A DNA stretch of 64,000 bases from a virus (lineage: Duplodnaviria; Caudoviricetes), in IMG/VR virus record IMGVR_UViG_3300033979_000663, positions 13,749-77,748 of that record. One strand, given 5' to 3'. The notes below the pieces were generated by a model. That model made no database searches and was not told the origin of the DNA. It saw only the letters and a list, made by a program, of their open reading frames with translations. Position numbers and translations under genes: made by a program. Below, piece after piece: positions 50-60,564 of this stretch (its first letter is position 1; each line of letters opens with the position of its first letter).

Positions 50-3000
50 TTGGTTGGTGGGTTAGACAGAGTTTCTACTACAGCCGGGGGGTTGGGTGAC
101 GCATTAAGTAATTTGGGTGGAGTCGGGCAATTTGCGGCTCAAGGGTTATTTGCCGTTTCTAACGCTGCTGCATCGTTGGCTGGCATCACGGGGACTGTTG
201 ATACCATTGGTGACTTGTATCAAGTCATGGAGCAGATCCAGGAAGTTGCACCTGATGTAGCTAGTGGGATTGGTGAAATAGCTGGGGCTGGTGTGGGGAT
301 AGGTCAAGGTGTGCTGGGAGTGACTGACTTAAACACCGAATTATATCTTGCGGCTCAAGCTGGGAAGAAATTCGGCAATGAGATGACTAAATCATTGTCA
401 GGCGTTTTTGTTAAATTCGCTGATTTAAAATCTCAAGTCACCCAAACAATCACAGTCCTCTCTGCAATGGCTGGAACTTTTACTGACTTGGCTCTCCATT
501 TGAAAGATTTTGGCAAGGGTTTAGAAACCGTCAGAAACTTAGGTTTTGATACTCAAGCTATGGAAATAGCTAACTCCATTGGTTTGATTGGTGAAAATTT
601 AGTATTTAATACCGAAGCATCTAAAAACTTTGCTAATGCGGCTGTAGCTGCTTTTTCTAAGGTTGAAGATTCCCTGGCGTTTATTACCACCTTACCATCT
701 GGTCAAGCTGCTGGTATCCCCATGTTATCCAAGCAATTAGATGACTTGGTGAATGGTCCATTAAACAACATGATTTCTAAGGGTGAGGCAGCGTCGGCAA
801 TGTACCAATCGTTGTCCGCAGGTATTGGTGCTACCACAGGGAAGCTAAAAGAATCGCAACCATTCTTGGAAGCGGCATTAAAGCTGTCTACTGGTACAGA
901 TACAGCCGCTTCGACTACAGTGGAAACCTTAGCTAAATTGACTTATGCCTATAATTTAAACGTCAAGGATGCAACTACAACCGCCGCAAAGCTTAATGGT
1001 ATAGTTGAAGAAGGTATAATCACCTTCCCACAACTAGCCGGCGGCATTGGTCGGGTAGCAGGCGTGGCTGCACAAGCGAAAGTCCCAATGAATGAGTTAA
1101 TGGGTTCTATAGCGGCATTAACCAAAACCATGAGTGCGGACGATGCCATGACTGGATATATGTCCTTGCTCAATGCGATCGCTGGTGCAGGGGAGCAGTC
1201 AAAAAAAGCAGCTTCGGAATTAGGGGTGCAATTTGACTTACAGGCAGTGAAGGCGAAGGGGTTACTAAATGTTCTCAAGGATTTGTACGACAAATCTGGG
1301 GGTAACGTTGAGAGAATCAAAGAAATTATTCCTGACTCATTGGCGTTCGGTACATCGTTAACCTTGATGACTACCGCATTCAAAGAAGCCAAGGAAAAAA
1401 CAGATATCATAGCTGGCAAGGGTGCTGAGGATTTAGAAAAGTTATTTGGTGGTAGAAATCAGTCAATGGTTCGCCAAATGACATCCCTAGTAAATGGTTA
1501 TGAGGAAGTATTATCTGGGTTTGGTGAAAAGTTTGCTGACAACTTCAAGCCAGGGGTAGAGTTTCTGCGAATCATGCTAGAGAGATTTCAGCAGATGCCT
1601 GAACCAATTAAGGAAACGATTGGGGCGATCGTCTCTTTTAATATGGGACTAGAGAAAGCATCTGGTTTTATCTCTATCCTGGTGGGTGGCATCGCCAAGG
1701 TTGGGGTAGCTTTGGCAATTATGCGTATTTCCTCATTGGCGATGACGGGGCAATTGGGATTACTCCGGACAGCAGCAATGGGAGTATTCCAAGCATTTGT
1801 AGCAGGAACAGGCAGAACTGCGGCTTTGACAACGGCATTTAACACCCTGACGGGCGCACAACAAATTGCAGTGGCAACCACAGCAGGATTCACTAGGGCA
1901 ACTACCCTTTTATCTAAAGTCAACGAAATATTGACAACAGATATTACTCGATTAATTAGAAGGCACGTAATCCTTGCCCAATACACCGACCTCTCTACTT
2001 CGTCCGAGAAAGCAAGTGCGATCGCTAAAGGAATATTAGCTGCGGCAACGAAAGGTTTATCGGCTGCAATGACCTTTTTAGGGACAACAATCAAGGCGTT
2101 ATGGATTTCATTTGGACCACTAGCGATCGCTATTGGTGCGGCTGTAGTTATTTTTCAGACATTAAGTGAAGTAATTAGTTTTAATATTTTAGGTTTCAAG
2201 TCTGCGAGGGCTGAAGCGGAAGAATATGCAGCTAAATTAATAGATTTAGGTGAGGCTACTAAGAGCTATATAGATATTTTAGGTGAAGAAACCAAAGCTG
2301 TTGATAAGAGTGTTCAGGGCTACAAAGAAAGAATCAAACAATTGGATGAATTGCGGAAAAAGGAGAAAGATCCTGGCAGAAGACAGGCAATAGAAGATGA
2401 GATAAAAAACAACAAAACTCTTCTCAAAGCCCAACAGGAAAAGGAAGATAAAAAATACACTGGGTTTTTTAACACTGGGGTTTTGCCTTTTGCGGAAGGA
2501 GTAACAAAGGGTCTTTACAGCGTGGCATCTTTCATGAGTCCAGAAGAAGCAAAAGATAGGAATTACAAGAAAATAGAAGATAGTTTTCGTGGGTTTAAAG
2601 ATAAACACCAAGCCCGAATGGATGAGGAAAGTGGTGTTTATGCAGCAGAAGATCAAAATAGGCAACAAGTAACTGAATTATTTAGTCGGGCATATCGCCG
2701 CGCTCAGATATCAAAAGAAGGTGGTGCGGTTAGTGCTGAAGCCAGGGAAATATTAGAGTCTACAAAGTATCGCGCTTTGTCAGGTCCAGAGATGACAAAG
2801 GTGCTTGAAGCTGAAACCAAGGCTTACGAAAAGAACAAAGAAGCTATTGACGGCAAAGTAACGGCATTACAAGCTGCACTGGAAGCGACCCAAGACCCTG
2901 CAAGACAGGAACAGATAAAACAGGATATCAAACAATTAAATGATGCCACCGCAGCAGAGAAAAAATACAATGATGCTAAACTGCAATTCATTAGAGATAG

Positions 3001-5833
3001 AGAATCAATAAAAACAGCCCAAGAAGGCAACAAAGACCCCATTGAAAGGGTAAATGAACTGTTCCAAGAACAATATGAAAAAGCTGCTGAACTCAGGGAG
3101 AAGATGAAGTCAGCAACAACTCAAGATGAAAAAGACTTTTTAGACTTCCAGCAAAAATCAGCAGAAGCAACCTCTGAATTAACCGCTAAGTTTGGGCAAG
3201 GCATCCTACAGAATGGTGAACTAGGTAAAAAGCAAATAAACTCATTAACTGCTGCTTACAAAGAGTTTGCTGATAACCCATTAAAAACCGAGATAGGGAA
3301 TGCTGAAGACCTAAACAAAATGCGGTCTGATGCAGATAAATTCTTGGGAGAGATACAGAACAATATTCCCAATATTTCCACAGCTACAGCCGAGTCATTA
3401 GTCAAGGCTTTACTTGCTCAAAAGGTTAAGGTTCAAGGTAGTGATATTGTTCAAAGTATTTTATCCCCAGAACAAATTCAAGAAGCAGTAGATGTACTTC
3501 AGAAGATTTATGAAAAGTCAGCACAAGACCAAATTGATATCAATAACCGCAAGGTAGCTAAAATTAACAATCAAGAAGCGTTAGGTATTAAACGCCAAAC
3601 CTTAGCACAAAAAGAAATACTGGAAGTTGAGATTGAATCTAATGAGGAAAAACTGAAATCTAAACAAAAGTATCTAGATTTACTGGTCAGCATGAATTTG
3701 ATAGACAAAGAATCTGACCTGTACAAAAAACTCAATGATGAAATAGTTAACCTTCAGTATGATACAGAACAGAAGAAAACCAAGATTATTGAAGCAGCAA
3801 TTAATGATAGGGTAGCTTTAAATAAGCGTGGACTTGACAAAGAACAAGCGATCGCAGAACTTGGACGTGCCGCTAGATTGAATGAAGAACAGAAGACTCA
3901 GGATAAATTATTTGAATTACAGCAAAAGCAGAACTTAAATCAGAGAAAAGGGATTCGTGACAGGATTCAGGATTTAAAGGCAAGAGGTGGTGATTACAAT
4001 GAATTAGAAATTGAGTTATTAAAGTTGATGACTGAGTATGAAAACAACGTCAACGACAGAAATAAACAACTCGATGCCAGAGAAAAAGAAAGGCTTAACA
4101 ATCAAACCACTGAGCAGAACCAAATACTAGAAAAAGAGTTAAATTCACTTGAACTGCAATCTAAACAACTGGAAAGACAGAAAAATATAACTGAATCCAG
4201 GAATAATGCGGTTAAAACTGAGTCGGAAATCACCCAAAGCCGATTAGAATTGCAATTGCGGGTGACGGGTGATATTCAGAAGCAAGCAGATATTGAATAT
4301 GCGATCGCTAAGGAGAAGATTAAAAACCTACAATTATCCCAGAAGATTGAAAGGGAGAATTTAGTCACCCAACGTCAATTACAAACAATTGCCATTAACA
4401 GAGAGATTGTTGCCAACAAGATAGCCCAAGCTGAGAACCAGAGAGCGATCGCTGCTTTAAAAATTGATTTACTCCGTGCCAAGAATGAGAAGCGTTCCCT
4501 TGATGAAATTAAAGCAATGGAACTACAACTATTCTCAATGGAGGAACAGTCAAGGGTACTTGGTGAAACTGGCAAGGGGCTAGAGGCGAACAAGGAAACC
4601 CAGGAAAAGGTCGCCGAAAATACTGAACGTGAAGTGTTGGCACGGCAGAAGATTAGTATGGCTGGGGGGATATTAGATGAACACCAAGCTAAGATTAATC
4701 AGATACTTGCTAAATACGATAAACAGATAGAGCAAGCTAACCTTTACACCAAACAGATAGAGGTACAGAATATTCGTCTCACTGCCCAATCCGAGGCAAT
4801 GGGTAGGGTATATGACTTGCAGAATCAAATCATGGATTCTCAGAAGTCGGTATTGGAAAGTAGAACAAACCGATTGACTGGTGAGTTACAGATTGCCATG
4901 AATTTGACGACATCTGAAACCAAGAGACGTGATTTGGCTCAGACGATCGCTCAAATCAAACTCAGGACATTAGACAGACAACAGGAGATTGAACGCAGGG
5001 TTTTAGAGATTCAGTTATTACAAAACAAAGCTGCACTTGAAAGAGAAAAAATTCAACTCCGAACCCAGCAATCACAGAATAATGCCGATACATGGGGATC
5101 TTTTGCTAACCTACAAAAAGTATTGGCAAGTGATAAATCTACTGATGCAGAGAAGAAATCAGCACTCTATGACTTGCAAGCAAAACAGGAACAAGGTGCT
5201 TCATTAGCATACCAACAGCAAGCTCTTGGGGAGAAAGAAAGATTACAAGACTTCCTGGCAAATAACCAACGTAGCAATCTTAGAGACAGCCAATCATTAG
5301 CTAGAACACAAGCTGAGTATGAGGTAATTGGAACTTTATCACCTGGAGCGCAAAGAAGGGAGGGTCGAAAACTAAGAGACAGAATCCTTCGTGATAATTT
5401 AGGAATCACCCCCTATAGTGGTCCAATCAATGGGGGGATGATGGCGGAGGATCAGAATAAGCAGGATTGGAGAAATCTGCGAAATATGAACAGACGGGGT
5501 GGTATTGATGTGGGTATGCCTAATGCACCACAAATAACCCCTGATATTAGCTATGAAGAGTTCCGTAAAAACTACCTATCCAGGCAACAAGAGTTCTTAG
5601 TTCCACCCTCAATAAAAATGCCCTCCTTGGATACAAATATCCAGAAGGGCAAAGGAGAGAACACCAGGTCGGATGCTGGTACTACTATAGCTGAAATGAA
5701 GTTAATAGTAGAAGCTATCAACATTGATGTTACCAGTAATGCAAGCCCCAAAGATGCCGCTAAAGATGTGAAGCAAGCTATTTTAGATGAGTTGCATGAT
5801 CTGACGGCTAAGGTGAAAACTAAATTGAAGTAG
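50..5833 (+). CDS. Phage tail tape measure protein (true start probably upstream of the window)
   Basis: 1927 aa. The Ala/Gly-rich N-terminal part has a TP901-type TMP core (ETLAKLTYAYNL...GIITFPQLAGGIGRVAGVAAQAKVPMNELMGSIAALT), then hydrophobic segments and a long coiled coil. The frame is open back to the window start. Confidence 0.85.
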   Translation: MVGGLDRVSTTAGGLGDALSNLGGVGQFAAQGLFAVSNAAASLAGITGTVDTIGDLYQVMEQIQEVAPDVASGIGEIAGAGVGIGQGVLGVTDLNTELYLAAQAGKKFGNEMTKSLSGVFVKFADLKSQVTQTITVLSAMAGTFTDLALHLKDFGKGLETVRNLGFDTQAMEIANSIGLIGENLVFNTEASKNFANAAVAAFSKVEDSLAFITTLPSGQAAGIPMLSKQLDDLVNGPLNNMISKGEAASAMYQSLSAGIGATTGKLKESQPFLEAALKLSTGTDTAASTTVETLAKLTYAYNLNVKDATTTAAKLNGIVEEGIITFPQLAGGIGRVAGVAAQAKVPMNELMGSIAALTKTMSADDAMTGYMSLLNAIAGAGEQSKKAASELGVQFDLQAVKAKGLLNVLKDLYDKSGGNVERIKEIIPDSLAFGTSLTLMTTAFKEAKEKTDIIAGKGAEDLEKLFGGRNQSMVRQMTSLVNGYEEVLSGFGEKFADNFKPGVEFLRIMLERFQQMPEPIKETIGAIVSFNMGLEKASGFISILVGGIAKVGVALAIMRISSLAMTGQLGLLRTAAMGVFQAFVAGTGRTAALTTAFNTLTGAQQIAVATTAGFTRATTLLSKVNEILTTDITRLIRRHVILAQYTDLSTSSEKASAIAKGILAAATKGLSAAMTFLGTTIKALWISFGPLAIAIGAAVVIFQTLSEVISFNILGFKSARAEAEEYAAKLIDLGEATKSYIDILGEETKAVDKSVQGYKERIKQLDELRKKEKDPGRRQAIEDEIKNNKTLLKAQQEKEDKKYTGFFNTGVLPFAEGVTKGLYSVASFMSPEEAKDRNYKKIEDSFRGFKDKHQARMDEESGVYAAEDQNRQQVTELFSRAYRRAQISKEGGAVSAEAREILESTKYRALSGPEMTKVLEAETKAYEKNKEAIDGKVTALQAALEATQDPARQEQIKQDIKQLNDATAAEKKYNDAKLQFIRDRESIKTAQEGNKDPIERVNELFQEQYEKAAELREKMKSATTQDEKDFLDFQQKSAEATSELTAKFGQGILQNGELGKKQINSLTAAYKEFADNPLKTEIGNAEDLNKMRSDADKFLGEIQNNIPNISTATAESLVKALLAQKVKVQGSDIVQSILSPEQIQEAVDVLQKIYEKSAQDQIDINNRKVAKINNQEALGIKRQTLAQKEILEVEIESNEEKLKSKQKYLDLLVSMNLIDKESDLYKKLNDEIVNLQYDTEQKKTKIIEAAINDRVALNKRGLDKEQAIAELGRAARLNEEQKTQDKLFELQQKQNLNQRKGIRDRIQDLKARGGDYNELEIELLKLMTEYENNVNDRNKQLDAREKERLNNQTTEQNQILEKELNSLELQSKQLERQKNITESRNNAVKTESEITQSRLELQLRVTGDIQKQADIEYAIAKEKIKNLQLSQKIERENLVTQRQLQTIAINREIVANKIAQAENQRAIAALKIDLLRAKNEKRSLDEIKAMELQLFSMEEQSRVLGETGKGLEANKETQEKVAENTEREVLARQKISMAGGILDEHQAKINQILAKYDKQIEQANLYTKQIEVQNIRLTAQSEAMGRVYDLQNQIMDSQKSVLESRTNRLTGELQIAMNLTTSETKRRDLAQTIAQIKLRTLDRQQEIERRVLEIQLLQNKAALEREKIQLRTQQSQNNADTWGSFANLQKVLASDKSTDAEKKSALYDLQAKQEQGASLAYQQQALGEKERLQDFLANNQRSNLRDSQSLARTQAEYEVIGTLSPGAQRREGRKLRDRILRDNLGITPYSGPINGGMMAEDQNKQDWRNLRNMNRRGGIDVGMPNAPQITPDISYEEFRKNYLSRQQEFLVPPSIKMPSLDTNIQKGKGENTRSDAGTTIAEMKLIVEAINIDVTSNASPKDAAKDVKQAILDELHDLTAKVKTKLK

Positions 5834-13748: not shown

Positions 13749-13779
13749 AAAAAGCCCTGGATAATTCCGGGGCTTTTTT
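13749..13779. terminator. Bidirectional intrinsic terminator
   Basis: AAAAAGCCCTGGATAATTCCGGGGCTTTTTT. Confidence 0.75.
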
Positions 13780-42343: not shown

Positions 42344-43384
42344 TTGAAGTGGTTATTTCAGTTACCAATGGGTTTGTTTCCAGTGAGTCAACCCAATCCA
42401 ATAGAGCCTATGCAAGCAAACGGTGAATTCTATCCCGCCATCCTCTTGATTGAGGTTTGGTGGGTAGGTAAAGATCAGCCCGTCATGATGAGGGCTGCTG
42501 GGTTTGTACCTAATGGGTACGGCGATGCTTGGGTTCGCCAATGTAAAACCCAAGAGGAATTTGATAAGTGGCGTTCGCACTCTCTAGCACTTATCAAAAG
42601 GTTCAATGGTCGGGCTCTTGATGTTACTCAATGGCGACCTAGACAACCTGAACCTATCCCAACCCCAGTAGTTGACATGGAATCAATTGCCAACAAAATA
42701 AAGAAACTGTTGGCATTATCCCAGTCACCTAACGAAGCGGAGGCGATCGCTGCTTCACAAAAAGCCCAGGAACTGTTGACCCGCCATAATTTATCAATGG
42801 CGGATTTAGCTGACTCCTCTCAAGAGGATGTTGAAAGGTACGAGCTAGAAACCTTTTCCAAGTTCGTTGGATGGAAAAGTCACTTGGCTGCTGGCGTTGC
42901 TAAATACAACGTCTGCAAGTGTATCCTGTCTGAAATCGAGGGGAAAAGTATTGTATTCATTGGCAGGTCAAGTAATTGTAAAGTTGCTGCACTGCAATAT
43001 GAATACCTTGCTTCTACCATTGACCGATTAGCTAAAGAGCAGGAAGGCGATCGCTCTTACAAGAATGCCTTTCGATTGGGTGCTGCCGACAGGATATCCA
43101 AGAGGCTGGAATACTTGCGGATAGAACAAGAAGAAGATGGGCTTGAGTCAGATGATGGCAATATATCAGCCATTGTCATCACCTCTTTGCACAAAAGACT
43201 TGAGGGTGAGATAGATGCTTTTTACAAATCTTACCTGAAGTCAAATAAAATAACGAGTCGCGCAGTCAGGGGATCGTCATACTCGTCAAGAGGTGGCTAT
43301 GCTGCTGGCGATCGCGCCGGTCAATCAGTAAGTCTCAACAAACAAGTTGGGGCAGGTAATCAGAAACAGTTAGGAGGCAGATAA
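42344..43384 (+). CDS. DUF2786-domain protein
   Basis: KIKKLLALSQSPNEAEAIAASQKAQELLTRHNLS; ...NAFRLG...GYAAG..AG..V.L. Confidence 0.8.
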   Translation: MKWLFQLPMGLFPVSQPNPIEPMQANGEFYPAILLIEVWWVGKDQPVMMRAAGFVPNGYGDAWVRQCKTQEEFDKWRSHSLALIKRFNGRALDVTQWRPRQPEPIPTPVVDMESIANKIKKLLALSQSPNEAEAIAASQKAQELLTRHNLSMADLADSSQEDVERYELETFSKFVGWKSHLAAGVAKYNVCKCILSEIEGKSIVFIGRSSNCKVAALQYEYLASTIDRLAKEQEGDRSYKNAFRLGAADRISKRLEYLRIEQEEDGLESDDGNISAIVITSLHKRLEGEIDAFYKSYLKSNKITSRAVRGSSYSSRGGYAAGDRAGQSVSLNKQVGAGNQKQLGGR

Positions 43385-44601: not shown

Positions 44602-44740
44602 TCGAATCGAACACGACCTGAGCAAGTCAGAAAGAAGTTAATCTTGATGAATTTTGTGAGTTTTAGCAGGAAATAGCGATCGCACGGGGTAACTAAGTGC
44701 GATGTTCGATTCGATTATTAAACCGAGGAGACAAAAAGCA

Positions 44741-45175
44741 ATGAAAGTATCTGAGTTACACCAATTAATCGGTCGCCCTGCTTTTAATATTGGCGATCGA
44801 GTTATCCACTCTTATGAAGTTGGTTGGGTATCCCACATCAACTTAAATCACGAAAAGAAACAGTACATCTATATGGTGGTAAACGAGGAAGGCGCGTACA
44901 TCAATGGCACAGCAACAAATAGCGGGTTTTCTATCGAAGAAATCAAACCCGATGAAGGAGAATTAGCCGATGTGTCTAATTGCTATCCTTGCCGATCGCT
45001 GTTTTTAAGAGCCTCTGGTAATCGCCCTGCTGTTAAAGTCAATAAATCATGTCATCTTGATTCAAGTAAGGATAGATGGATTTGCTGGTTGCTTGAGAAC
45101 GGTGAATGGCAAATCAAAGGGGAGTTCAAAGATCCCGATGATGCGATCATGATGGCTATGTCATACAGAAAATGA
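44741..45175 (+). CDS. Hypothetical protein
   Basis: GAGGAG RBS before MKVSEL. Confidence 0.6.
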   Translation: MKVSELHQLIGRPAFNIGDRVIHSYEVGWVSHINLNHEKKQYIYMVVNEEGAYINGTATNSGFSIEEIKPDEGELADVSNCYPCRSLFLRASGNRPAVKVNKSCHLDSSKDRWICWLLENGEWQIKGEFKDPDDAIMMAMSYRK

Positions 45176-47247
45176 ATCTGACAAATAGAGAGTATTTGGA
45201 GGCAGCGATCGCCTCTATCAAAATCCTCCGCAAACAATCCCCCTTAACGGAACAAGAAAGGGGGATTTTGCTTGCATTCCCTGGGGGTGGCATCCTCAAG
45301 GAGTGCGGGGTTTTCACCGACGACGATAAACCCCGTTGGTTAGTTGAGGGTCGGGAGGAGTTGCGATCGCTCCTCACCAATGAAGAATGGGAAGGGATAC
45401 AGAATAGTGGGATGCAAAACTCCCACTACACCTTACCCCAAATACGTCAAGCTATGTGGGAGGCACTACTGCCATTAATAGAAGATCCTTGTGTTCTCAG
45501 GGTGCTTGATCCTGGATGTGGTACGGCTGGTTTTCTTTGGGATATGCCCAATGATGACCGACTCACGTATTACGGCATTGACAAGGACGTTTTGCCTGTT
45601 GCGATCGCCCGGAAAGCGATAGGCAAAAGCAAGCACCAACTGGTAAAGCAGGATTTCTTGCAACATGATCCCATGTTTCCTTATGGTGCTGCCATCGGCA
45701 ATGTTCCGTTTGTTAATGGCGTTAACTCAATGGTGTTAGAGGGCAAGAAATTGGGTATTGCTATTCATGCCCAATTCTTCATTAAGTCCGTCCAGTTACT
45801 AGCACCTGGCGCACCTCTAATGTTCCTCACCTCAACTACGACACTTGATGCTAGGGGTGAGGATTACGTCTGGTTTCGCCGATGGTTGCACAGAAAATGT
45901 GAGTTCATCGGTGCGTTGAGATTACCTGCGGATGCCGTTCATCATGGCAACACTCAGGTAACAACTGATTTGATTATCCTTCGTCGTCGCAAGGGTAAGG
46001 ATTGCAATGAACCCGATACTAATTGGATTGAAGTGGTGGAAAGTGATTTGATTAATCCCCACTACAACATCCCTGTGTTGTACAACCAATGGTTCATTGA
46101 TAATCCCTGGTGTTTGTTAGGCGATCGCACTATTTCCAAAGTGCGAGGTAAAAACGGCAATCCTACCAATTGCCTTGCAATTCAATCTCGTCCAAATTTC
46201 GCAAAAGAATTGCGTGAGTCCTTAGCAAAACTCACGCATCAAAACAACGTATCTAACAAGGAGAATCATATCATGGCTACATTAATCCCTGCTGATAAGT
46301 TCCAGTCTTATTCCGTTTTCTCTTTCATTCTCAGAGAGAATCCAAAACAACAAGGGGTTGAGATTCATTTCCCCCCTGAGTATGTAGCGGAAAGCGATGC
46401 TGAAAAAACCCTGTTAGAGCAAATTAAGTCTAAGGGGCTTGTCGCTGCTAAGTCTAATCCTTCGTTGTTCTACATCAAGCCCCGAACATCGGAAGAACAC
46501 GCTCAACTAATGGCATATATGCGTAAGAAGGTAGCAGCTTGTTCTAAGTGGGGGGCTTGTGAATTAGATGCCGACACACCTGTGGAAGAAATTAAGCCGC
46601 GCCGTCGCTGGGGAGGCAACAAGGAAAACAAGCCCGTTGAACCTGTCGCTACTCCTACGTCTGCTCCCATTGTGGATGCGATCGCCCAACGACTACAGCC
46701 GATGTTCGATGAATTGGCTAGTAAAATCCAAGTTCCTGCTGCTGACCCCAAAGAGTTGCAGGAGGCACAAGCGAAACTTACTGACTACCTGCACAGGTGG
46801 CAGAAGGATCAAGAAACTTTTAAGACGTTAAAATCGGAGGTGGATGTCTTTGTTGGTCTTAACGAAGAATTGAAAAGAGACAATGAGGATTTGCGATCGC
46901 AGCTTGCAGATGTTACCGCAAAAATCGTTGAACTCAATGGCACGGTTCATGAGTTACAAACGGAATTGAAAGAAACCAGGGAAGCTGATATAGAACTCAT
47001 GAGGCAAGTTGAATCCTTGCAAGAAAAAAACGAGGGATTGCGATCGCAACTTGCAGAGTTTGGTGTTGGTGTAACCCAACAACCCGAACCTGACCTGGTT
47101 GACGATGAACCTGACTTGCAGGATGAACCTGACTTGCAGGATGAACCTGACTTGAGTGACGACGAAGACCTCCCCTCTGCATTCCAACCCCAATCATCTG
47201 ATGACGATGATGAAGATGGCTTCAACATAGCGTTACTGGGGGAGTAA
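45172..47247 (+). CDS. DarB-type N6-adenine methyltransferase fused in frame to a coiled-coil/acidic protein (internal start 46273)
   Basis: AFPGGG, SHYT, VLDPGCGTAGF, IGNVPF, ALRLP...NTQVTTDLIILRR; AAGGAG-N9-ATG at 46273. Confidence 0.8.
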   Translation: MNLTNREYLEAAIASIKILRKQSPLTEQERGILLAFPGGGILKECGVFTDDDKPRWLVEGREELRSLLTNEEWEGIQNSGMQNSHYTLPQIRQAMWEALLPLIEDPCVLRVLDPGCGTAGFLWDMPNDDRLTYYGIDKDVLPVAIARKAIGKSKHQLVKQDFLQHDPMFPYGAAIGNVPFVNGVNSMVLEGKKLGIAIHAQFFIKSVQLLAPGAPLMFLTSTTTLDARGEDYVWFRRWLHRKCEFIGALRLPADAVHHGNTQVTTDLIILRRRKGKDCNEPDTNWIEVVESDLINPHYNIPVLYNQWFIDNPWCLLGDRTISKVRGKNGNPTNCLAIQSRPNFAKELRESLAKLTHQNNVSNKENHIMATLIPADKFQSYSVFSFILRENPKQQGVEIHFPPEYVAESDAEKTLLEQIKSKGLVAAKSNPSLFYIKPRTSEEHAQLMAYMRKKVAACSKWGACELDADTPVEEIKPRRRWGGNKENKPVEPVATPTSAPIVDAIAQRLQPMFDELASKIQVPAADPKELQEAQAKLTDYLHRWQKDQETFKTLKSEVDVFVGLNEELKRDNEDLRSQLADVTAKIVELNGTVHELQTELKETREADIELMRQVESLQEKNEGLRSQLAEFGVGVTQQPEPDLVDDEPDLQDEPDLQDEPDLSDDEDLPSAFQPQSSDDDDEDGFNIALLGE
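47104..47154 (+). repeat. 18-bp coding tandem repeat (DEPDLQ, about 2.8 units)
   Basis: GATGAACCTGACTTGCAG units. Confidence 0.85.
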
Positions 47248-47633: not shown

Positions 47634-47773
47634 AACCGCACGGGGTGACTAAGTACTTCGAGATTAAATAACAGGAACAGCGATCGCCCCTCGGTAGATC
47701 GCATTCCCCCAATGGTAGCTAATCGGTGATTGGCTTTCATTGGGGGAATTTTGTTTCACACCCCATAAGGACA

Positions 47774-49148: not shown

Positions 49149-49206
49149 AAAGCTCACAACCGCACGAAGTAACTAAGTGCAACTAACAACCAAAGGAGCA
49201 AAAACA

Positions 49207-49740: not shown

Positions 49741-49824
49741 CAGCGATCGCACGAAGTAACTAACCCAAATCTCATGTTCGATTAGGACATGGGATTTTTT
49801 TATTATTCACACAGGAGTAAAATC

Positions 49825-50244
49825 ATGGAAATCAAAGCCAAGTACGTCACTAATAAGTACATTGACATCTTTGTAGAGGGTGTCACCCCATCAGATACCC
49901 ACTGGGGAGGGGTGAAAGCTATGCTTGAGGGTGCAAAATTCAAGTTAGAAGGATTTGCCTACCGCCGCACATTCGACAACCCCACTGAGTTTAGTAAGTG
50001 GTTAAGACATACCAGATCATTAACTACTAAATTCGGTGGTACTGAACCAGAGGAAATAGTAGACCCACTGCAAAATCTCATGGACATGATTGCCGAGTTC
50101 GAGTCCCGGTTCGATGAAATGAACCAGGAGGTATCTGTCCTAAAAAAGTTCGACATCTCCGCGCAGGAGAGATTGAACAGCTTGAAGCAGCAATTAGAGC
50201 AACAACCGGACAAAAAGCCCCCAGCAAGAAGAAAGAAAAAATAA
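49825..50244 (+). CDS. Hypothetical protein; probable N-terminal part of a -1 frameshift fusion with the next ORF
   Basis: AGGAG RBS; internal GGAGG-N10-A AAA AAG followed by a hairpin. Confidence 0.65.
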   Translation: MEIKAKYVTNKYIDIFVEGVTPSDTHWGGVKAMLEGAKFKLEGFAYRRTFDNPTEFSKWLRHTRSLTTKFGGTEPEEIVDPLQNLMDMIAEFESRFDEMNQEVSVLKKFDISAQERLNSLKQQLEQQPDKKPPARRKKK

Positions 50245-50285
50245 TCCCCGACACATTCACCCCAACCGTCAAGTTCCTGGATGAG

Positions 50286-51524
50286 ATGGGGTCGGACAAT
50301 TTCATTGATATTGACTCTCGCCCTGACCTTGAGTGGGCTAAACGTCATAAAGGGGGTATCTACACTTTCCATCGAGGTCAACTGGGTATCGCATTCAACG
50401 TTCCCCGCAACTTGTGGTGGCAAATTCCCAAAGAATGCTATTTGGGGAGTATTGATGATATCCCTCGTTACGTGGAGATTCACGAAGAGGGTTATCTTCC
50501 CTGCGTGTGGCGTGATGGGGAACACCGATTCGTCTATGCTAACCAGTTCTTTCCGGTGTATGCACCGGACAACCAACTGGTTGTTATGGACAAGTTATTA
50601 CGGATTGCCTCTATTACCGAGCGATTAATAGAGGCAGAATCCACAGAACAGGACGACACCCATTGCACCTATCTCCGTAATGGGTTAAACGAGTTGTATT
50701 CCGACTTCGTGACCAATTACGGTGCTATCCGCAACTATCAAGTTTACTGGGACAATGACCTCTGGTGTGACATGAGGTTAGAGACGTATATCACTAACCT
50801 AGTTGATGGGTACGGCAAACTTGCCGACATCTTCACCAAAAGAACCAAGTTCCCACCTTCTGACCCCGTTGGGCAACAGTTCTTTCAAGATTCAATTCCT
50901 GACAGAGTTGAGTCTGCATTGTCTTGGTGTATGGCTTGGTTGGGTAAAGTTGATGTTCCTCAAATAGCAGAAAAAGCAGGTGTTGATGAGGCGATCGCTC
51001 TGGAAATCCTGCTAGAAAATGAACTGGTTTACCGAGTTCCTGAAGTTGTTGAGCCTCAGTGGTGGGAAGTATTAGGGGTTGATAAAGATATTGACTCTGA
51101 TTACCAACTCACGACTGCATGGAAGGAACAGCGCGAGGATGATATTACCTTTGCACTGACTCTCGATGAGGCATACAAGAAAGCCTTGCCGATAGTTACC
51201 TCCCGGTTGCCTTATCCCGACTGGGAGGAAACAGAGGAGGTGGTTATCCTGCATCATGCAGGTGGTACTTATACCTATCAAAAAGTACCCTGCAAGTCCG
51301 CTCACGGGTACAGCATTGGCACTGTACCCAAAGACTTCAAAGAAAGGTCAAAAACGGAAACACCTGTGTTCCTGATGAAAGAGGACATAATCGGGGTTTT
51401 CGCCAACGAAACCAAGGCTATTCGATGCCTGATTGAATTATCTAGGCATCCAAAGGCATACATCCACTCTATTGATATGCAAGTCATTATCAAGTTCTAT
51501 GGCTTGTCTGCACACTGGCATTAA
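50286..51524 (+). CDS. Middle segment of a DarB-like protein with a degenerate J-domain-like tail
   Basis: LNELYSDFVTNYG...KLADIFTKRT...SAL...GKVD..IAE; later WWEVLGV...AYKKA without HPD. Confidence 0.65.
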   Translation: MGSDNFIDIDSRPDLEWAKRHKGGIYTFHRGQLGIAFNVPRNLWWQIPKECYLGSIDDIPRYVEIHEEGYLPCVWRDGEHRFVYANQFFPVYAPDNQLVVMDKLLRIASITERLIEAESTEQDDTHCTYLRNGLNELYSDFVTNYGAIRNYQVYWDNDLWCDMRLETYITNLVDGYGKLADIFTKRTKFPPSDPVGQQFFQDSIPDRVESALSWCMAWLGKVDVPQIAEKAGVDEAIALEILLENELVYRVPEVVEPQWWEVLGVDKDIDSDYQLTTAWKEQREDDITFALTLDEAYKKALPIVTSRLPYPDWEETEEVVILHHAGGTYTYQKVPCKSAHGYSIGTVPKDFKERSKTETPVFLMKEDIIGVFANETKAIRCLIELSRHPKAYIHSIDMQVIIKFYGLSAHWH

Positions 51525-51545: not shown

Positions 51546-54500
51546 ATGGCTTATCAAGATAAACGTACATTTTTGAGTGGTGACTTAGGCGAGAAATTAG
51601 AAAGGGTTAGAAGAGTAGTAGAAATAGATCCATCTTTTAAAAGAGAAGAGGAAGCGATCGCTAACGCTATCCCCAAACAAATACCTATTGAGTTGATTGA
51701 CCTTTCCCCTGGTACGCAATGGATACCCACTACAACTTATGAAGAATTTATCTTGGAAACCTTTGGGGTTGAATGCAAGCTATTCTTCTCCCCCACTATG
51801 GGAGTATGGGACATTGTTGTCACAGATAACAAAGCACTAAAGAGTGAAAATAATCCCCACGTCGAAGTTACCAAGAGAGAGAAGGGTGAAGACTATCAAG
51901 CGTGGGTTTATGCGATCGCTGAATCCATCAACAATGGTATTTTCACTTCTATGTTCCACTTTAAATCCCCACCTGGGATTCAGTATGATACTGACAAGCA
52001 AGTTGTCAGAGCAAAGCAGGATGAACTCACGGATACTTTTGTTAAATGGTGCAGGAAAAATAAAGGTGAGGAACTGCAAAAACTGTATAACCGCAGATTT
52101 AATAGTGCGGTAATTCCTAACTGGGATAATTCAGCACCTAAGAACCTGAAGGAAATATTAAAAACTGCTGGTATGACTGGCAGGTTAAACGGTGTTAAAA
52201 AGTTTATTGATGTCTTTGTCCAAGAAGACGGAAGTGTTGTACAAGAAGAACGGATTGTAGAGGATGGGGTGCTATGGGTAGATGCGCTTCGCCCTTACCA
52301 GTTGGATGCAATATGGCGCATGGCTACCCAACCCTGCAACGGATTGTTAGGGCTGGAGGTAGGGTTAGGTAAAACCGCCTGTGGTATTGCCACTGCTATG
52401 TTGAGAAGGTATCTGAAAACCAGCAACTTGACGATGGTTGTGGTGCAAAAATCCACCCTGCTCCAATTCGATAAAACCTTTCGGGAGATGTTTCCCAACG
52501 CCAAGGTTCTATGCGCCAAGAGTAATGACATGAATCAAAAATCAAGGCAATCGTTCTTGGCGAAGGCTGTCCTGTGGGAATGGGACGCAATCATCCTAAC
52601 TCATGATAATTTTCAAGCAATTCCGGTGCGATCGGAAACAAATCGGGTTTATATCCAAAGAAAACTCGATTTGATTGAGTGGGAGATGACATCTATTGAA
52701 TCATCTGGTGAAGTGTCCTATAAAACCAAGGGGAGGAGAGGTAACTACGTCCTCAAAAGGCTAGAGGCGGAAAGGGATAAGCTCAACAACGATTTATTAA
52801 AGTTAGAAAAGGACAGAGACGGTGGTATCCGCTTTGAGGATATTAACCCCTCGCTATTAATAGTAGACGAGGCGCAGAAGTACAAGAACAATCACTATGC
52901 CTCAAAAATCCAAGCCAAGGGGATTGGTGGTTCTCAATCCAATATGGCTCAAGACCTGGATATAAAGTTAGGGTTCTTGCGAGAAACCCGTGATAACCCT
53001 AACTTCCTGTTATTTATGACAGGAACGCCCGAACCCACCAATTCAATTGCGGGGGTGTATGTTTACCAGATGTATTTACACCCTGAAGAGTTGGAGAAAC
53101 GAGGTATCAAACATTTTGACGCTTGGGCGCATCAGTTTGGTAAAGTTGTAACTCGTGCCGAATACTCCCCGTCAGGGGGATTTGTGGAAACCACAAGGTT
53201 CTGCAAGTTTGTGAATATGCCTGAGTTATCGCTAATGTACAAGATGTCGCTCCACTACAAGCGATACTACCATGTGCAAGGTCAAGCAGGGTTCAAAAGA
53301 CCAGAACCAAAAGAAATGAGGGTATCTTCACCGCTAACTGACTTCCAGATACGTAGGATGGATCAGCTTTGCGATCGCTACAATGCACTCAAAATCGGCG
53401 TTCCTCTCAGATTCCCTGATCGGGACAACAGGGACGGGTGCTTGATTTACCAAGAAAGAGACTCAGAAGGCAAGAAGATAGGTAAACCGCAACGACTATA
53501 CCATCCAGGGACGACTAACCCCATCAAGGATGAAAATGTTGCTAGTGATTACGGACTTGTTTGGAGCGATCGCCCCGACGGGTATCTTGATGTCTATAAC
53601 GAAATGCGGCGGTTAATGATTGCCCCGCAGTTTGAAGACCTTGATGAAGTCGTATTCAGTACCGATAAGATTGCTAAATGTGCCAGAAATATCTACCGGA
53701 TATGGAAGGCAACAAAGAAAAGGCAAAGCACTCAGTTAGTATTCTTGGACATGGGTGCGCCTAACGGTGGTTGCAAATTCCAAGCCTATCAATGGTTAAA
53801 AGAGCGATTAGTTGAATATGGGATACCCAAGGGAGAAATTGCCTTTATTCAATCGGCAAAAACTGACCAAGCAAAAGCCGACTTATTCGATAAGGTTAAC
53901 GCTGGTGAGGTTAGGGTACTAATCGGACACCGTGAGTCTATGGGTGTTGGGGTCAATGTCCAGAAGAAAGTTGTCGCCATGCACATGGTAGACATCCCAT
54001 TCCGTCCTGACCAGAATGAGCAAGCGATCGGTAGAGGTATCAGGGATGGCAACGAGAACGAGAAGGTTCTCATTCTCTGGTATATTTACCGCGCCAAAAA
54101 AGGCAGTAGTCAATGTAGTGCTGATACTGCATCAATGGATCTATTAGCCATTAAAGCTAAACAGCAATTCCAAGTTCTTGACGGTGACGCTACCGCTAGA
54201 GAGGTAGAGGAAGAAGACCATAAGAGTGCCGCTTACGCTGCTTTATCAGCCTACGCCACTGGCGACCCAAGGCACATGGAATTGGCTAACTTGAAATCTG
54301 ACATAGTTGGTGTATACGCCAAACATCGGTTGCTGGAAACCGAAACCATTGACTTGAGAATTAATTTGTCTTCAACCCAAGAGCGTATCAAGAGCATGAC
54401 CAGGAAACATGAGTTCTTACTTCCTGATGTGAATAGTGTAGAGACTAACAAACATCGGTACTTCTCCGACAACCACTTTGCAATAGTGATTCATTCCAGA

Positions 54501-55061
54501 GGTGGGATACCAATGCTGTACGCTGGTTTCCAGAAGGGTTCTGAGTCCTTCGAGTTGGATGTACTGGAAAAAGTGGATAGGTGTGTTATTCGATATGAAG
54601 ATGAGAAAGCTGTTAATACTCGACTAAGTATTGGGCAATCTCAGGAACGCGCACGATTGGCATTACGGGGTAATATTTCCGACTTAGAAATGAAATATCA
54701 GGACACACCCATGCCTCAAATCCCAATTACAACAATTGGTTCTATTGGTGGTATGCCCATCTTGTATCGAGCAAGAATTGGCTTGTTCTTGCAGGGATAC
54801 GACCAAAACTACGAGATTAGTAGGGGGGAAACGGTAGTTCTCAAGAATATCATAGGGGCATACTTGGGTATCCCCCAAAGACAACAGGCGATCGCTGACA
54901 ACATCAAAAAAGCAGAAGATTCTATCGCCCCAATGAGCAAGGATCTTAATGAAAAATCACTCAGAAAGAGTGAAATAGCCAGGGAGTTGGAGGAAATGGA
55001 GTTCCGTAAAGCCCAACTTGAACGGGAGTTACATCCCAAAAAGGATGCTCCTATTGAGTAA
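51546..55061 (+). CDS. SNF2-family helicase (C-terminal part of a DarB-like protein)
   Basis: FLSGDLGEKL, PGTQWIP, LRPYQ, EVGLGKT, VDEAQKYKN, MTGTP, GVGVNVQ, EQAIGRGIRDGN. Confidence 0.88.
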   Translation: MAYQDKRTFLSGDLGEKLERVRRVVEIDPSFKREEEAIANAIPKQIPIELIDLSPGTQWIPTTTYEEFILETFGVECKLFFSPTMGVWDIVVTDNKALKSENNPHVEVTKREKGEDYQAWVYAIAESINNGIFTSMFHFKSPPGIQYDTDKQVVRAKQDELTDTFVKWCRKNKGEELQKLYNRRFNSAVIPNWDNSAPKNLKEILKTAGMTGRLNGVKKFIDVFVQEDGSVVQEERIVEDGVLWVDALRPYQLDAIWRMATQPCNGLLGLEVGLGKTACGIATAMLRRYLKTSNLTMVVVQKSTLLQFDKTFREMFPNAKVLCAKSNDMNQKSRQSFLAKAVLWEWDAIILTHDNFQAIPVRSETNRVYIQRKLDLIEWEMTSIESSGEVSYKTKGRRGNYVLKRLEAERDKLNNDLLKLEKDRDGGIRFEDINPSLLIVDEAQKYKNNHYASKIQAKGIGGSQSNMAQDLDIKLGFLRETRDNPNFLLFMTGTPEPTNSIAGVYVYQMYLHPEELEKRGIKHFDAWAHQFGKVVTRAEYSPSGGFVETTRFCKFVNMPELSLMYKMSLHYKRYYHVQGQAGFKRPEPKEMRVSSPLTDFQIRRMDQLCDRYNALKIGVPLRFPDRDNRDGCLIYQERDSEGKKIGKPQRLYHPGTTNPIKDENVASDYGLVWSDRPDGYLDVYNEMRRLMIAPQFEDLDEVVFSTDKIAKCARNIYRIWKATKKRQSTQLVFLDMGAPNGGCKFQAYQWLKERLVEYGIPKGEIAFIQSAKTDQAKADLFDKVNAGEVRVLIGHRESMGVGVNVQKKVVAMHMVDIPFRPDQNEQAIGRGIRDGNENEKVLILWYIYRAKKGSSQCSADTASMDLLAIKAKQQFQVLDGDATAREVEEEDHKSAAYAALSAYATGDPRHMELANLKSDIVGVYAKHRLLETETIDLRINLSSTQERIKSMTRKHEFLLPDVNSVETNKHRYFSDNHFAIVIHSRGGIPMLYAGFQKGSESFELDVLEKVDRCVIRYEDEKAVNTRLSIGQSQERARLALRGNISDLEMKYQDTPMPQIPITTIGSIGGMPILYRARIGLFLQGYDQNYEISRGETVVLKNIIGAYLGIPQRQQAIADNIKKAEDSIAPMSKDLNEKSLRKSEIARELEEMEFRKAQLERELHPKKDAPIE

Positions 55062-55143
55062 AGTATCAGGATATATTTTAGATATAAGCCGCACGGGGTG
55101 ACTAAGTGCGGTATGTTCGATTCGATTATTACCAAGGAGAGCT

Positions 55144-58630: not shown

Positions 58631-58906
58631 TTATTTTTTCTTCTGATAAGTTTGTCTCTCTGGCGCGTGATTTTTGTGGGCTTCGCAATATGGATAGATT
58701 GCGTCGCTTCTTAAACCAGGATTACACACAAGGCAGTTCATACTAGCTGCTATTTCTTCAGGTGGCCAAACCGGAAAACCTGAGTCTGATATTTTCTGTA
58801 AAAGTTCAACATGATATGCCCTGATGATTCTGTGGCGGTGAGTAGGGATATCTTGTTTAAATAACAAAATATAGTCAGAATTGTTGAAATCTAAACGAAT
58901 ATACAT
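58631..58906 (-). CDS. Small protein with C-terminal CxxC...YCxxH zinc finger
   Basis: CLVCNPGLRSDAIYPYCEAHKNHAP. Confidence 0.6.
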   Translation of the reverse strand: MYIRLDFNNSDYILLFKQDIPTHRHRIIRAYHVELLQKISDSGFPVWPPEEIAASMNCLVCNPGLRSDAIYPYCEAHKNHAPERQTYQKKK

Positions 58907-60150: not shown

Positions 60151-60564
60151 TTATTTTTTCTTCTGATAAGCTTGTCTCTCTGGCGCGTGATTTTTGTGGA
60201 CTTCGCAATATGGATAAATTGCGTCGCTTCTTAAATTAGAATTGCACACAAGGCAGTTCATACTAGCTGCTATTTCACTAGCTATGGGCGTATCCGGATC
60301 AAATGATGTTGTGACAATAGCTATAGGTTTACCCGCTTCTTTAATGGCTTGCCATTTACATCTATTCCTGTAGTGGCTAACTATGGGTGCTGCTAACCAG
60401 TAGGGTATTCTCCCACAGGATATAATTAGTCCCTTTGTTCCATTAATTTCCGGGAATGTCATCTGTAGTAAGTCTAGTCTATCTGCTTTTCCCCTGACTT
60501 GAATAAATATCCAAGTCTCCAAGTCTTTTTCTACGGTGGTAATTTTTGTAGTCATAATCAACAT
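60151..60564 (-). CDS. Divergent Csx3-like domain fused to a zinc finger
   Basis: FPEINGTKGLIISCGRIPYWLAAPIVSHY...KWQA...AIV resembles Csx3 G(V/I)(V/I)(I/L)SGR.P.WL...L.H. Confidence 0.55.
   Translation of the reverse strand: MLIMTTKITTVEKDLETWIFIQVRGKADRLDLLQMTFPEINGTKGLIISCGRIPYWLAAPIVSHYRNRCKWQAIKEAGKPIAIVTTSFDPDTPIASEIAASMNCLVCNSNLRSDAIYPYCEVHKNHAPERQAYQKKK

Follow-up and report, generated by a model that had tools for sequence, protein, structure and literature searches.

A 64,000-nt stretch of viral DNA (hereafter the window; positions 13,749–77,748 of the 77.7-kb IMG/VR record IMGVR_UViG_3300033979_000663) was analyzed, in which a small open reading frame (ORF1, beginning at 49825) and a downstream frame representing the middle segment of a DarB-like protein (ORF2) are probably joined by programmed −1 ribosomal frameshifting of the dnaX/IS3 type at a conserved site. 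An earlier note, made from the nucleotide sequence alone, had proposed a dnaX-style signal connecting the 49825 ORF to the DarB middle segment, and this proposal gains support from its conservation across three viral lineages. As revealed by the comparison with homologous loci that the note had recommended, the window together with its close relative L001, and the two more distant contigs L003 and L005, all keep the break between the frames, the slippery heptamer, and a GGAGG-type element 10–13 nt upstream of it. The elements of the region are as follows (window coordinates):

49825..50244, + strand: ORF1, the 0-frame product, 139 aa; AGGAG ribosome-binding site 8–12 nt before its ATG
50126..50131, + strand: internal Shine-Dalgarno-like AGGAGG within the codons for Q-E-V; 10-nt spacer (50132–50141) to the heptamer
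50142..50148, + strand: slippery heptamer A_AAA_AAG; ORF1 codons CTA (50140–42), AAA (50143–45), and AAG (50146–48)
50156–50170, + strand: 3' stem-loop TCTCC-GCGCA-GGAGA, 7 nt past the heptamer; upper stem 50156–60/50166–70
50149–53/50173–77 (whole 50149..50177), + strand: lower stem of the 3' stem-loop; possible weak stimulator
50148..50285, + strand: −1-frame extension of 46 codons without ATG, GTG, or TTG; helical continuation, then a basic disordered linker
50286..51524, + strand: ORF2, 412 aa if started at its ATG; DarB-like middle segment, degenerate J-domain-like region, C-terminal domain

The putative frameshift site and its conservation

The AGGAGG (50126–50131), the 10-nt spacer, the in-frame heptamer (50142–50148), and the letters of the hairpin (50156–50170) were all found where the earlier note had placed them. 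Likewise, the −1 frame is closed shortly upstream, with a TGA at 50115–50117, 8 codons before the heptamer, and is open from there into the 412-aa ORF, providing 458 open codons past the shift up to the stop at 51522–51524. The first ATG, GTG, or TTG of this frame is ATG 50286, 48 codons past the heptamer. The remark that this ATG has no clear ribosome-binding site was also correct, as the preceding 22 nt contain no AGGAG-type site; however, this represents weak evidence, because many genes in the window lack one.

The combination of elements is rare within the window. AAAAAAG occurs 31 times (16 on the + strand and 15 on the − strand) and is in phase within ORFs of at least 90 aa in five cases, of which the ORF1 heptamer is the only one with a long −1 frame (460 codons, compared to 4–43 codons for the other four). 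A Shine-Dalgarno-like pentamer followed after 7–13 nt by AAAAAAG was detected at a single place in the 64 kb, both strands included. Among 30 xKK tripeptides encoded in 21 plus-strand genes, the heptamer is used once, and the probability of the heptamer given L-K-K amounts to 0.089 per lineage under the codon usage of the window.

Close homologues were identified for both proteins. ORF2 has five (79–96% identity), four of them called at 412–413 aa from the same Met and one being a fragment, and ORF1 has nine (65–82% identity, 126–149 aa), resulting in a window-type family of 10 ORF1 proteins at 65–100% identity. The residues Q-E-V and L-K-K-F-D are invariant in 10/10 of these proteins. Since a run of seven A's would read L-K-K-V-R, the retained L-K-K-F-D indicates that the frame break is present in every independent assembly. 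Four of the 10 proteins end at 126–127 aa without the basic 0-frame tail, indicating that this tail is dispensable.

At the DNA level, the only close relative obtained from the metagenome scan was L001, a 1578-nt contig differing from the window at 19% of the ORF1 positions. Its frame layout and its AGGAGG are identical to those of the window. Only 1 difference was counted in the 30 nt from 50123 to 50152, compared to 60 in the remaining 317 nt of ORF1 (binomial P ~0.014, calculated by hand). Of the four codons changed in L001 within the 41 nt that separate ATG 50286 from the ORF1 stop, three are synonymous in the ORF2 frame. Contigs from four other metagenome runs were also compared with the region; X18 ends short of the site, and X12, X14, and X15 were informative. 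Taking L001 and these contigs together, the changes at 50249, 50252, 50264, 50267, 50270, and 50277 are synonymous in the −1 frame, and within the 41-nt gap the contigs of the other runs feature, besides the synonymous changes at 50264, 50267, 50270, and 50277 (ORF2 frame), one Val-to-Ile replacement. Among the differences listed for X12, X14, and X15, indels in the downstream overlap measure only 3 or 12 nt, and a +1/−1 pair in the spacer cancels out. As far as the listed differences show, these contigs keep the six A's; 147 further differences lie beyond that list, which may therefore miss a change in the motif. In one variant, AGGAGG is followed by a different 10-nt spacer. Scans of viral and genome contigs with ORF1/ORF2 patterns, and of phage and plasmid collections, returned no further close DNA relatives, and the exact 30-mer of the site recovered no further DNA from viral contigs.

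With the −1-frame translation as query, an exhaustive profile-free search detected 42 proteins (E ≤ 0.001), among which P0021 (552 aa) starts with residues matching the start-less −1 extension; the 46-aa extension alone reaches E 3e-4 at 39% identity. With P0021 and a small alignment as queries, two further viral lineages, represented by the IMG/VR contigs L003 and L005, were found; a scan of viral contigs with an ORF1 pattern returned only these two again. Their ORF1 homologues are 130 aa long and are related to the window protein with an hhalign probability of 98.9 (E 1.3e-17) at 34–36% identity. L-K-K-F-D is invariant in 12/12 ORF1-family proteins, and CTA_AAA_AAG is in phase in all four DNA sequences (window, L001, L003, and L005). 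Upstream of it, L003 and L005 feature GAGGAGG or GAGGAGGAG, with 13 nt from AGGAGG to the heptamer. The Shine-Dalgarno-like element has been maintained despite a change in the amino acids it encodes (Q-E-V versus E-E-E/V). The open −1 frame begins 2 codons (L003) and 16 codons (L005) before the heptamer, and the conserved A_AAA_AAG represents the only canonical slippery site in the overlap between ORF1 and the −1 frame.

The stretch downstream of the heptamer evolves as coding sequence. The −1 product of L003 aligns with that of the window from residue one (39% identity, E 2e-61). Counted from the heptamer, the first ATG, GTG, or TTG of the −1 frame is reached after 48 codons in the window, 44 in L001, 75 in L003, and 46 in L005; in the latter two, it is located well inside the conserved domain, and ATG 50286 is not conserved outside the lineage of the window. 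Between L003 and L005, codons 20–75, which are start-less in L003, accumulated 17 synonymous and 7 non-synonymous changes, with 23 out of 29 differences at third positions. Their two-frame overlap contains 1 difference in 54 nt, and beyond the overlap synonymous changes were found in 69 of 214 codons. With coding constraint but no codon at which translation could be initiated, such a −1 stretch must be reached by ribosomes coming from ORF1.

Proposed mechanism and alternative explanations

The elements of the site match those described for bacterial −1 frameshifting in passages of the review by Atkins et al. (PMC5009743), and a tandem −1 slip was taken as the mechanism on this basis. According to these passages, no heptamer is more prone to shifting in E. 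coli than A_AAA_AAG, internal Shine-Dalgarno-like elements stimulate −1 shifting from 9–14 nt upstream, and stimulators of this type are prominent in dnaX and in an estimated 56% of insertion sequence (IS) elements. Ribosomes would translate ORF1 from ATG 49825 and pause with two tRNA-Lys on A_AAA_AAG (50142–50148), with the anti-Shine-Dalgarno end of the 16S rRNA pairing with AGGAGG 10 nt upstream; this pause may be reinforced by the modest stem-loop located 7 nt past the heptamer. A fraction of the ribosomes would slip back one base by a tandem slip of both tRNA-Lys and pass the start-less 46-codon linker into ORF2. Two products with the first 108 residues in common would result, namely the 139-aa ORF1 protein and a fusion of predicted 566 aa (108 + 458) containing the winged-helix-bearing DarB-like middle segment. 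The fixed ratio of short protein and fusion suggested in the earlier note would be a conjecture beyond this. Extra synthesis of ORF2 from ATG 50286 is possible in the lineage of the window.

Several observations weigh against the frameshift reading or limit its precision. The 3' stem-loop, regarded in the earlier note as the third element of the signal, is not supported as stated, being neither conserved nor significant. In the window, the minimum free energy of 50149–50200 is −13.2 kcal/mol (z −1.58), a stability that 16 of 200 shuffles (~8%) also reach. L001 forms a hairpin of different sequence, also 7 nt past the heptamer (−11.7 kcal/mol, z about −1.6, 14 of 200 shuffles as good), and L003 has no 3' hairpin (−4.2 kcal/mol, z +0.68; pseudoknots were not searched for). 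In some lineages the hairpin may modulate how efficiently ribosomes shift, but the site is not defined by it. Furthermore, a comparison of the window with L001 reveals no unusual conservation of the overlap past the heptamer (16 differences in 90 nt). Weaker sites are also found in phase, namely C_AAA_AAG at 50211–17 and, in L003 and L005, G_AAA_AAG near the end of ORF1. A host tRNA-Lys(CUU) would, as stated in a passage of the review (PMC5009743), lower the shiftiness of A_AAA_AAG, which is high on condition that a single tRNA-Lys(UUU) decodes both AAA and AAG. The sample comprises DNA for 4 family members; the other nine ORF1 proteins and P0021 are represented by protein sequence only. Finally, the similarity of the −1 peptides directly past the heptamer could follow from conservation of the 0 frame (F-D and S-A codons), for which reason we infer the exact slip site within the overlap and, with it, slippage at A_AAA_AAG 50142–50148.

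Alternatively, ORF1 and ORF2 could be independent genes, ORF2 being made only from ATG 50286 or a nearby non-canonical start and the motif being incidental to Q-E-V...L-K-K. The ATG exists and is the called start of all four full-length window-type ORF2 homologues, distant ORF2-like proteins occur on their own with separately called starts (e.g., P0023 and P0027), and the non-significant hairpin would fit this explanation as well; the absence of a Shine-Dalgarno sequence before 50286 is uninformative, given the many window genes without one. However, a start solely at 50286, which the earlier note had named as an outcome speaking against frameshifting, is contradicted by the preceding 41 nt, varying mostly synonymously in the ORF2 frame, and by the non-conservation of the ATG, L003 and L005 having start-less stretches of 75 and 46 codons that are conserved under purifying selection. 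Moreover, the heptamer needs specific synonymous codons, at the low probability per lineage given above, yet it is present in 4/4 DNA sequences, and the Shine-Dalgarno-like element was kept despite different amino acids (QEV versus EEE). Two independent genes are thus considered unlikely.

The same fusion might also arise by transcriptional slippage, with RNA polymerase adding one A in the A6 run and no slip of the ribosome. The proposed shift lies in a homopolymeric stretch of A's, where a single additional A would lead to the same fused protein, and slippage of this kind is known for Thermus dnaX, as mentioned in the consulted part of PMC5009743. That part of the review also refers to runs of about 9 A or T for bacterial transcriptional slippage, whereas exactly six A's followed by G were found in 4/4 DNA sequences with no trend to a longer run. 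In addition, the conserved Shine-Dalgarno-like element, located at the distance at which it acts on ribosomes (9–14 nt), has no role in transcription, which makes this route very improbable. Hardly credible is the third explanation, according to which a single base was recently deleted (A7 to A6), the sequencing or the assembly introduced an error, or the locus is a decaying pseudogene. Loss of one A from a seven-A run would give exactly such a picture, but the break is common to independent assemblies and to lineages only 34–36% identical in ORF1, and both frames are under purifying selection. The earlier note had also regarded homologues consisting of a single in-frame ORF as evidence against its proposal; the homologue searches found no unbroken relative, L-K-K-F-D being kept throughout the 12 ORF1-family proteins. 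Longer, in-frame fused relatives of ORF1 were not found by search either, although this is weak evidence.

Predicted proteins and genome context

The AlphaFold2 (AF2) model of ORF1 (mean pLDDT 84) features a beta-beta-alpha-beta-beta-alpha domain (residues 1–69) and a long helix (residues 81–125), inside which the shift point at residues 107–108 is located. For the −1 part, a helix (residues 6–20), a low-confidence basic linker (residues 25–50), and folded domains were predicted. Residues ~130–310 of the −1-frame product show colinearity with the segment intervening between methylase and helicase in contiguous DarB-like proteins. In P0054 (5213 aa), the methylase occupies residues 2196–2469, the ORF2-like segment 2569–2710, and the helicase 2720–3653; P0055, P0040, and P0057 are likewise colinear with ORF2, and the N-terminus of the helicase ORF directly follows the middle domain in P0021, P0054, and P0055. 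The label "DarB middle segment" assigned to ORF2 in the earlier note is supported by this colinearity with contiguous methylase–middle–helicase proteins.

ORF2 itself obtained no direct PHROG or Pfam match in the local libraries, and the NCBIfam scan returned coiled-coil noise only. PF28553 was precomputed for two ORF2 homologues, and ESM Atlas clusters name PF28553 WH_1 with a score of 0.83 (a lead only). For ORF1, the ESM Atlas pointed to DUF3560 or SNF2 N-terminal models at TM (template modeling) values of 0.4–0.47, again a lead only. For neither the ORF1 nor the ORF2 model did Foldseek return a PDB match at E ≤ 0.001. P0018, P0019, and P0020 carry a DnaJ (J) domain past the middle segment (Pfam E 4e-11 to 1e-7). 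ORF2 of the window aligns at this J region (51180–51330, residues ~300–350; W-W-E-V-L-G-V...) without the H-P-D motif and without a Pfam match, and what it carries looks, by its sequence, like a degenerate J domain.

A resemblance of ORF1 to the N-terminal domains of P0052, P0056, and the window methylase, noticed by eye, is not supported, as hhalign with the ORF1 family found nothing. Separately, the N-terminal stretch of a DUF2786/DUF7168 protein (42344–43384, + strand; L003 copy at 3909–4886) resembles the alpha/beta domain of ORF1 (hhalign E 1.9e-5, probability 77.5; L003 copy E 0.0016). These viruses may use the small alpha/beta domain of the ORF1 type repeatedly as an N-terminal module.

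In the window, the DarB-like protein is distributed over at least three ORFs (45172; 50286 via 49825; 51546) and is not one large polypeptide. The neighboring features are as follows:

45172..47247, + strand: methyltransferase piece of the DarB-like protein, 691 aa; phrog_10089 "DarB-like antirestriction", E 2.2e-42, profile positions 1606–1938; N6-adenine methyltransferase region
51546..55061, + strand: SNF2-type helicase piece of the DarB-like protein, 1171 aa; phrog_10089, E 1.4e-140; Pfam SNF2-rel_dom, ResIII, and Helicase_C
49767..49807, + strand: terminator-like hairpin and T-run between the preceding ORF and ORF1, from a consensus scan (not above shuffle expectation); kept in the L001 alignment
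44681–44696, 47637–47652, 49161–49176, 49748–49763, and 55090–55105, + strand: copies of the intergenic motif CGCACG[AG][AG]GT[AG]ACTAA
49592, 49743, and 50991: example copies of GCGATCGC

The methyltransferase ORF aligns to P0040, P0057, and P0054. Its end (46900–47247, + strand) encodes a long coiled coil with weak SMC/Rad50-like matches and an acidic tail with three D-E-P-D-L-Q repeats. Seven small ORFs separate it from ORF2, ORF1 being the last of the seven, and the helicase ORF begins 21 nt past the end of ORF2. In L003 (1–9957), the middle segment ends just past the winged-helix region, and ~4 kb of other genes precede the helicase ORF (8017 onward). The DarB-like pieces are thus more dispersed in L003 than in the window; L006 represents the opposite extreme, with one giant contiguous DarB-like ORF, which is not informative on the frameshift.

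The conservation of the terminator-like hairpin in L001 leaves room for ORF1–ORF2 to begin a separate transcription unit or to undergo attenuation. One copy of the intergenic motif directly precedes this hairpin. The motif has five + strand copies compared to 0.49 expected, a number reached in 0 of 100 shuffles, and could serve as a phage promoter or as a site of processing or regulation. Elsewhere in the window, two ORFs on the − strand (58631–58906 and 60151–60564) have different N-terminal parts and a near-identical Cys/His-rich C-terminal tail of ~45 residues (...E-I-A-A-S-M-N-C-L-V-C-N...H-K-N-H-A-P-E-R-Q...).

The octamer GCGATCGC, which we take to be the HIP1 palindrome typical of cyanobacteria, is present in 117 copies in the window, compared to 0.44 expected from base composition and 8 copies for the runner-up 8-nt palindrome. 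The copy at 49743–49750 overlaps the first three bases of the intergenic motif copy at 49748–49763. The window sequence was also present in lake and freshwater metagenome runs, and none of the listed runs containing it is on record as RNA. Based on the abundance of the octamer and this occurrence, the window is read as originating from a virus of a freshwater cyanobacterium. No tRNA genes were found in the window.

Relation to known recoding systems and significance

The closest parallel for the site is E. coli dnaX (tau/gamma), for which the review (PMC5009743, as far as consulted) describes the heptamer A_AAA_AAG, an upstream internal Shine-Dalgarno-like element, and a downstream stem-loop; the first two are shared by the window, where a possible stem-loop also follows a few nucleotides downstream. 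The outcome differs, since the shifted ribosome stops after one codon in dnaX, leading to a shorter product, whereas in the window it would enter a 458-codon frame and make a longer one. In dnaX, the Shine-Dalgarno-like element and the stem-loop are spaced 10 nt and 6 nt from the heptamer, respectively. In contrast to the dnaX stem-loop, the hairpin of the window is a weak one that differs even among close relatives and is missing from L003 and L005.

Regarding the products, IS3-family elements of the IS911 type are more similar, as they possess two overlapping ORFs, a −1 slip at an A-rich heptamer, and a short protein and a fusion sharing their N-terminus, the arrangement proposed for the window. 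In this family, OrfA is the short upstream protein, with a helical region at its end, and the −1 slip produces the OrfAB fusion. However, the downstream frame of the window represents a DarB-like middle segment and not a transposase, and Pfam, PHROG, and NCBIfam scans returned no match of ORF1 or ORF2 to transposase families; inverted repeats, at which no search was aimed, were not seen either. IS911 additionally uses a complex three-way-junction structure, according to the consulted part of PMC5009743, unlike the window.

Lambda G/GT is a pair of phage genes whose short product is extended into a longer one by a small fraction of the ribosomes, as proposed here, and for which the G/GT ratio matters (PMC5009743, in the passage on this pair). 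The genes are unrelated and the slippery sequence is another one; the window pair is located in a non-structural module between methylase and helicase. ORF1 and ORF2 obtained no chaperone match in Pfam, PHROG, or NCBIfam and do not precede a tape-measure gene. As for phage P1 DarB and DarB-like antirestriction proteins, the methyltransferase and SNF2-type helicase pieces match the DarB-like profile (phrog_10089), and ORF2 is colinear with the intervening segment; the version in the window differs in being split, with the middle piece reached, as proposed, by a frameshift from an unrelated small ORF.

Regarding function, it may be speculated that the shared N-terminal part of ORF1 lets the short and long forms co-assemble. 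A doubtful extension of this idea, drawn by analogy to the logic of lambda G/GT, is that the frameshift would serve as a stoichiometry device for the split DarB-like machine: an abundant ORF1 scaffold, built from the small alpha/beta domain and the long helix, would take in, through the common 108 residues, a set minority of fusion chains with the winged-helix middle segment. These chains would recruit the methylase, which is encoded separately and has a coiled coil of its own, and the helicase into an anti-restriction or DNA-modification complex, possibly for loading into the capsid.

We rate the mechanism as textbook, the gene context as new, and the comparative support as unusually clean. 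In SEA-PHAGES annotations, 2397 out of 2476 joined genes were tail chaperones, as given in the part of PMC10885494 consulted, which makes the context of the present site unusual. Among the titles listed by the literature searches, none concerned frameshifting in a gene of the DarB-like kind, and supplements (e.g., the gene-category tables of PRFect) might list similar cases. A dnaX-type site in the DarB-like methylase/helicase module of cyanobacterial viruses would extend recoding beyond tail-chaperone genes. It would also correct the annotation, because gene callers report a 139-aa orphan and an N-terminally truncated 412-aa ORF in the window and lose 46–75 conserved codons in L003 and L005. 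The site is compact and comes with natural variants (hairpin present or absent, Shine-Dalgarno spacing of 10 or 13 nt), which could show the stimulators that matter in cyanobacterial ribosomes. The arrangement also suggests that translation sets the amounts of the pieces from which split DarB-like proteins are put together.

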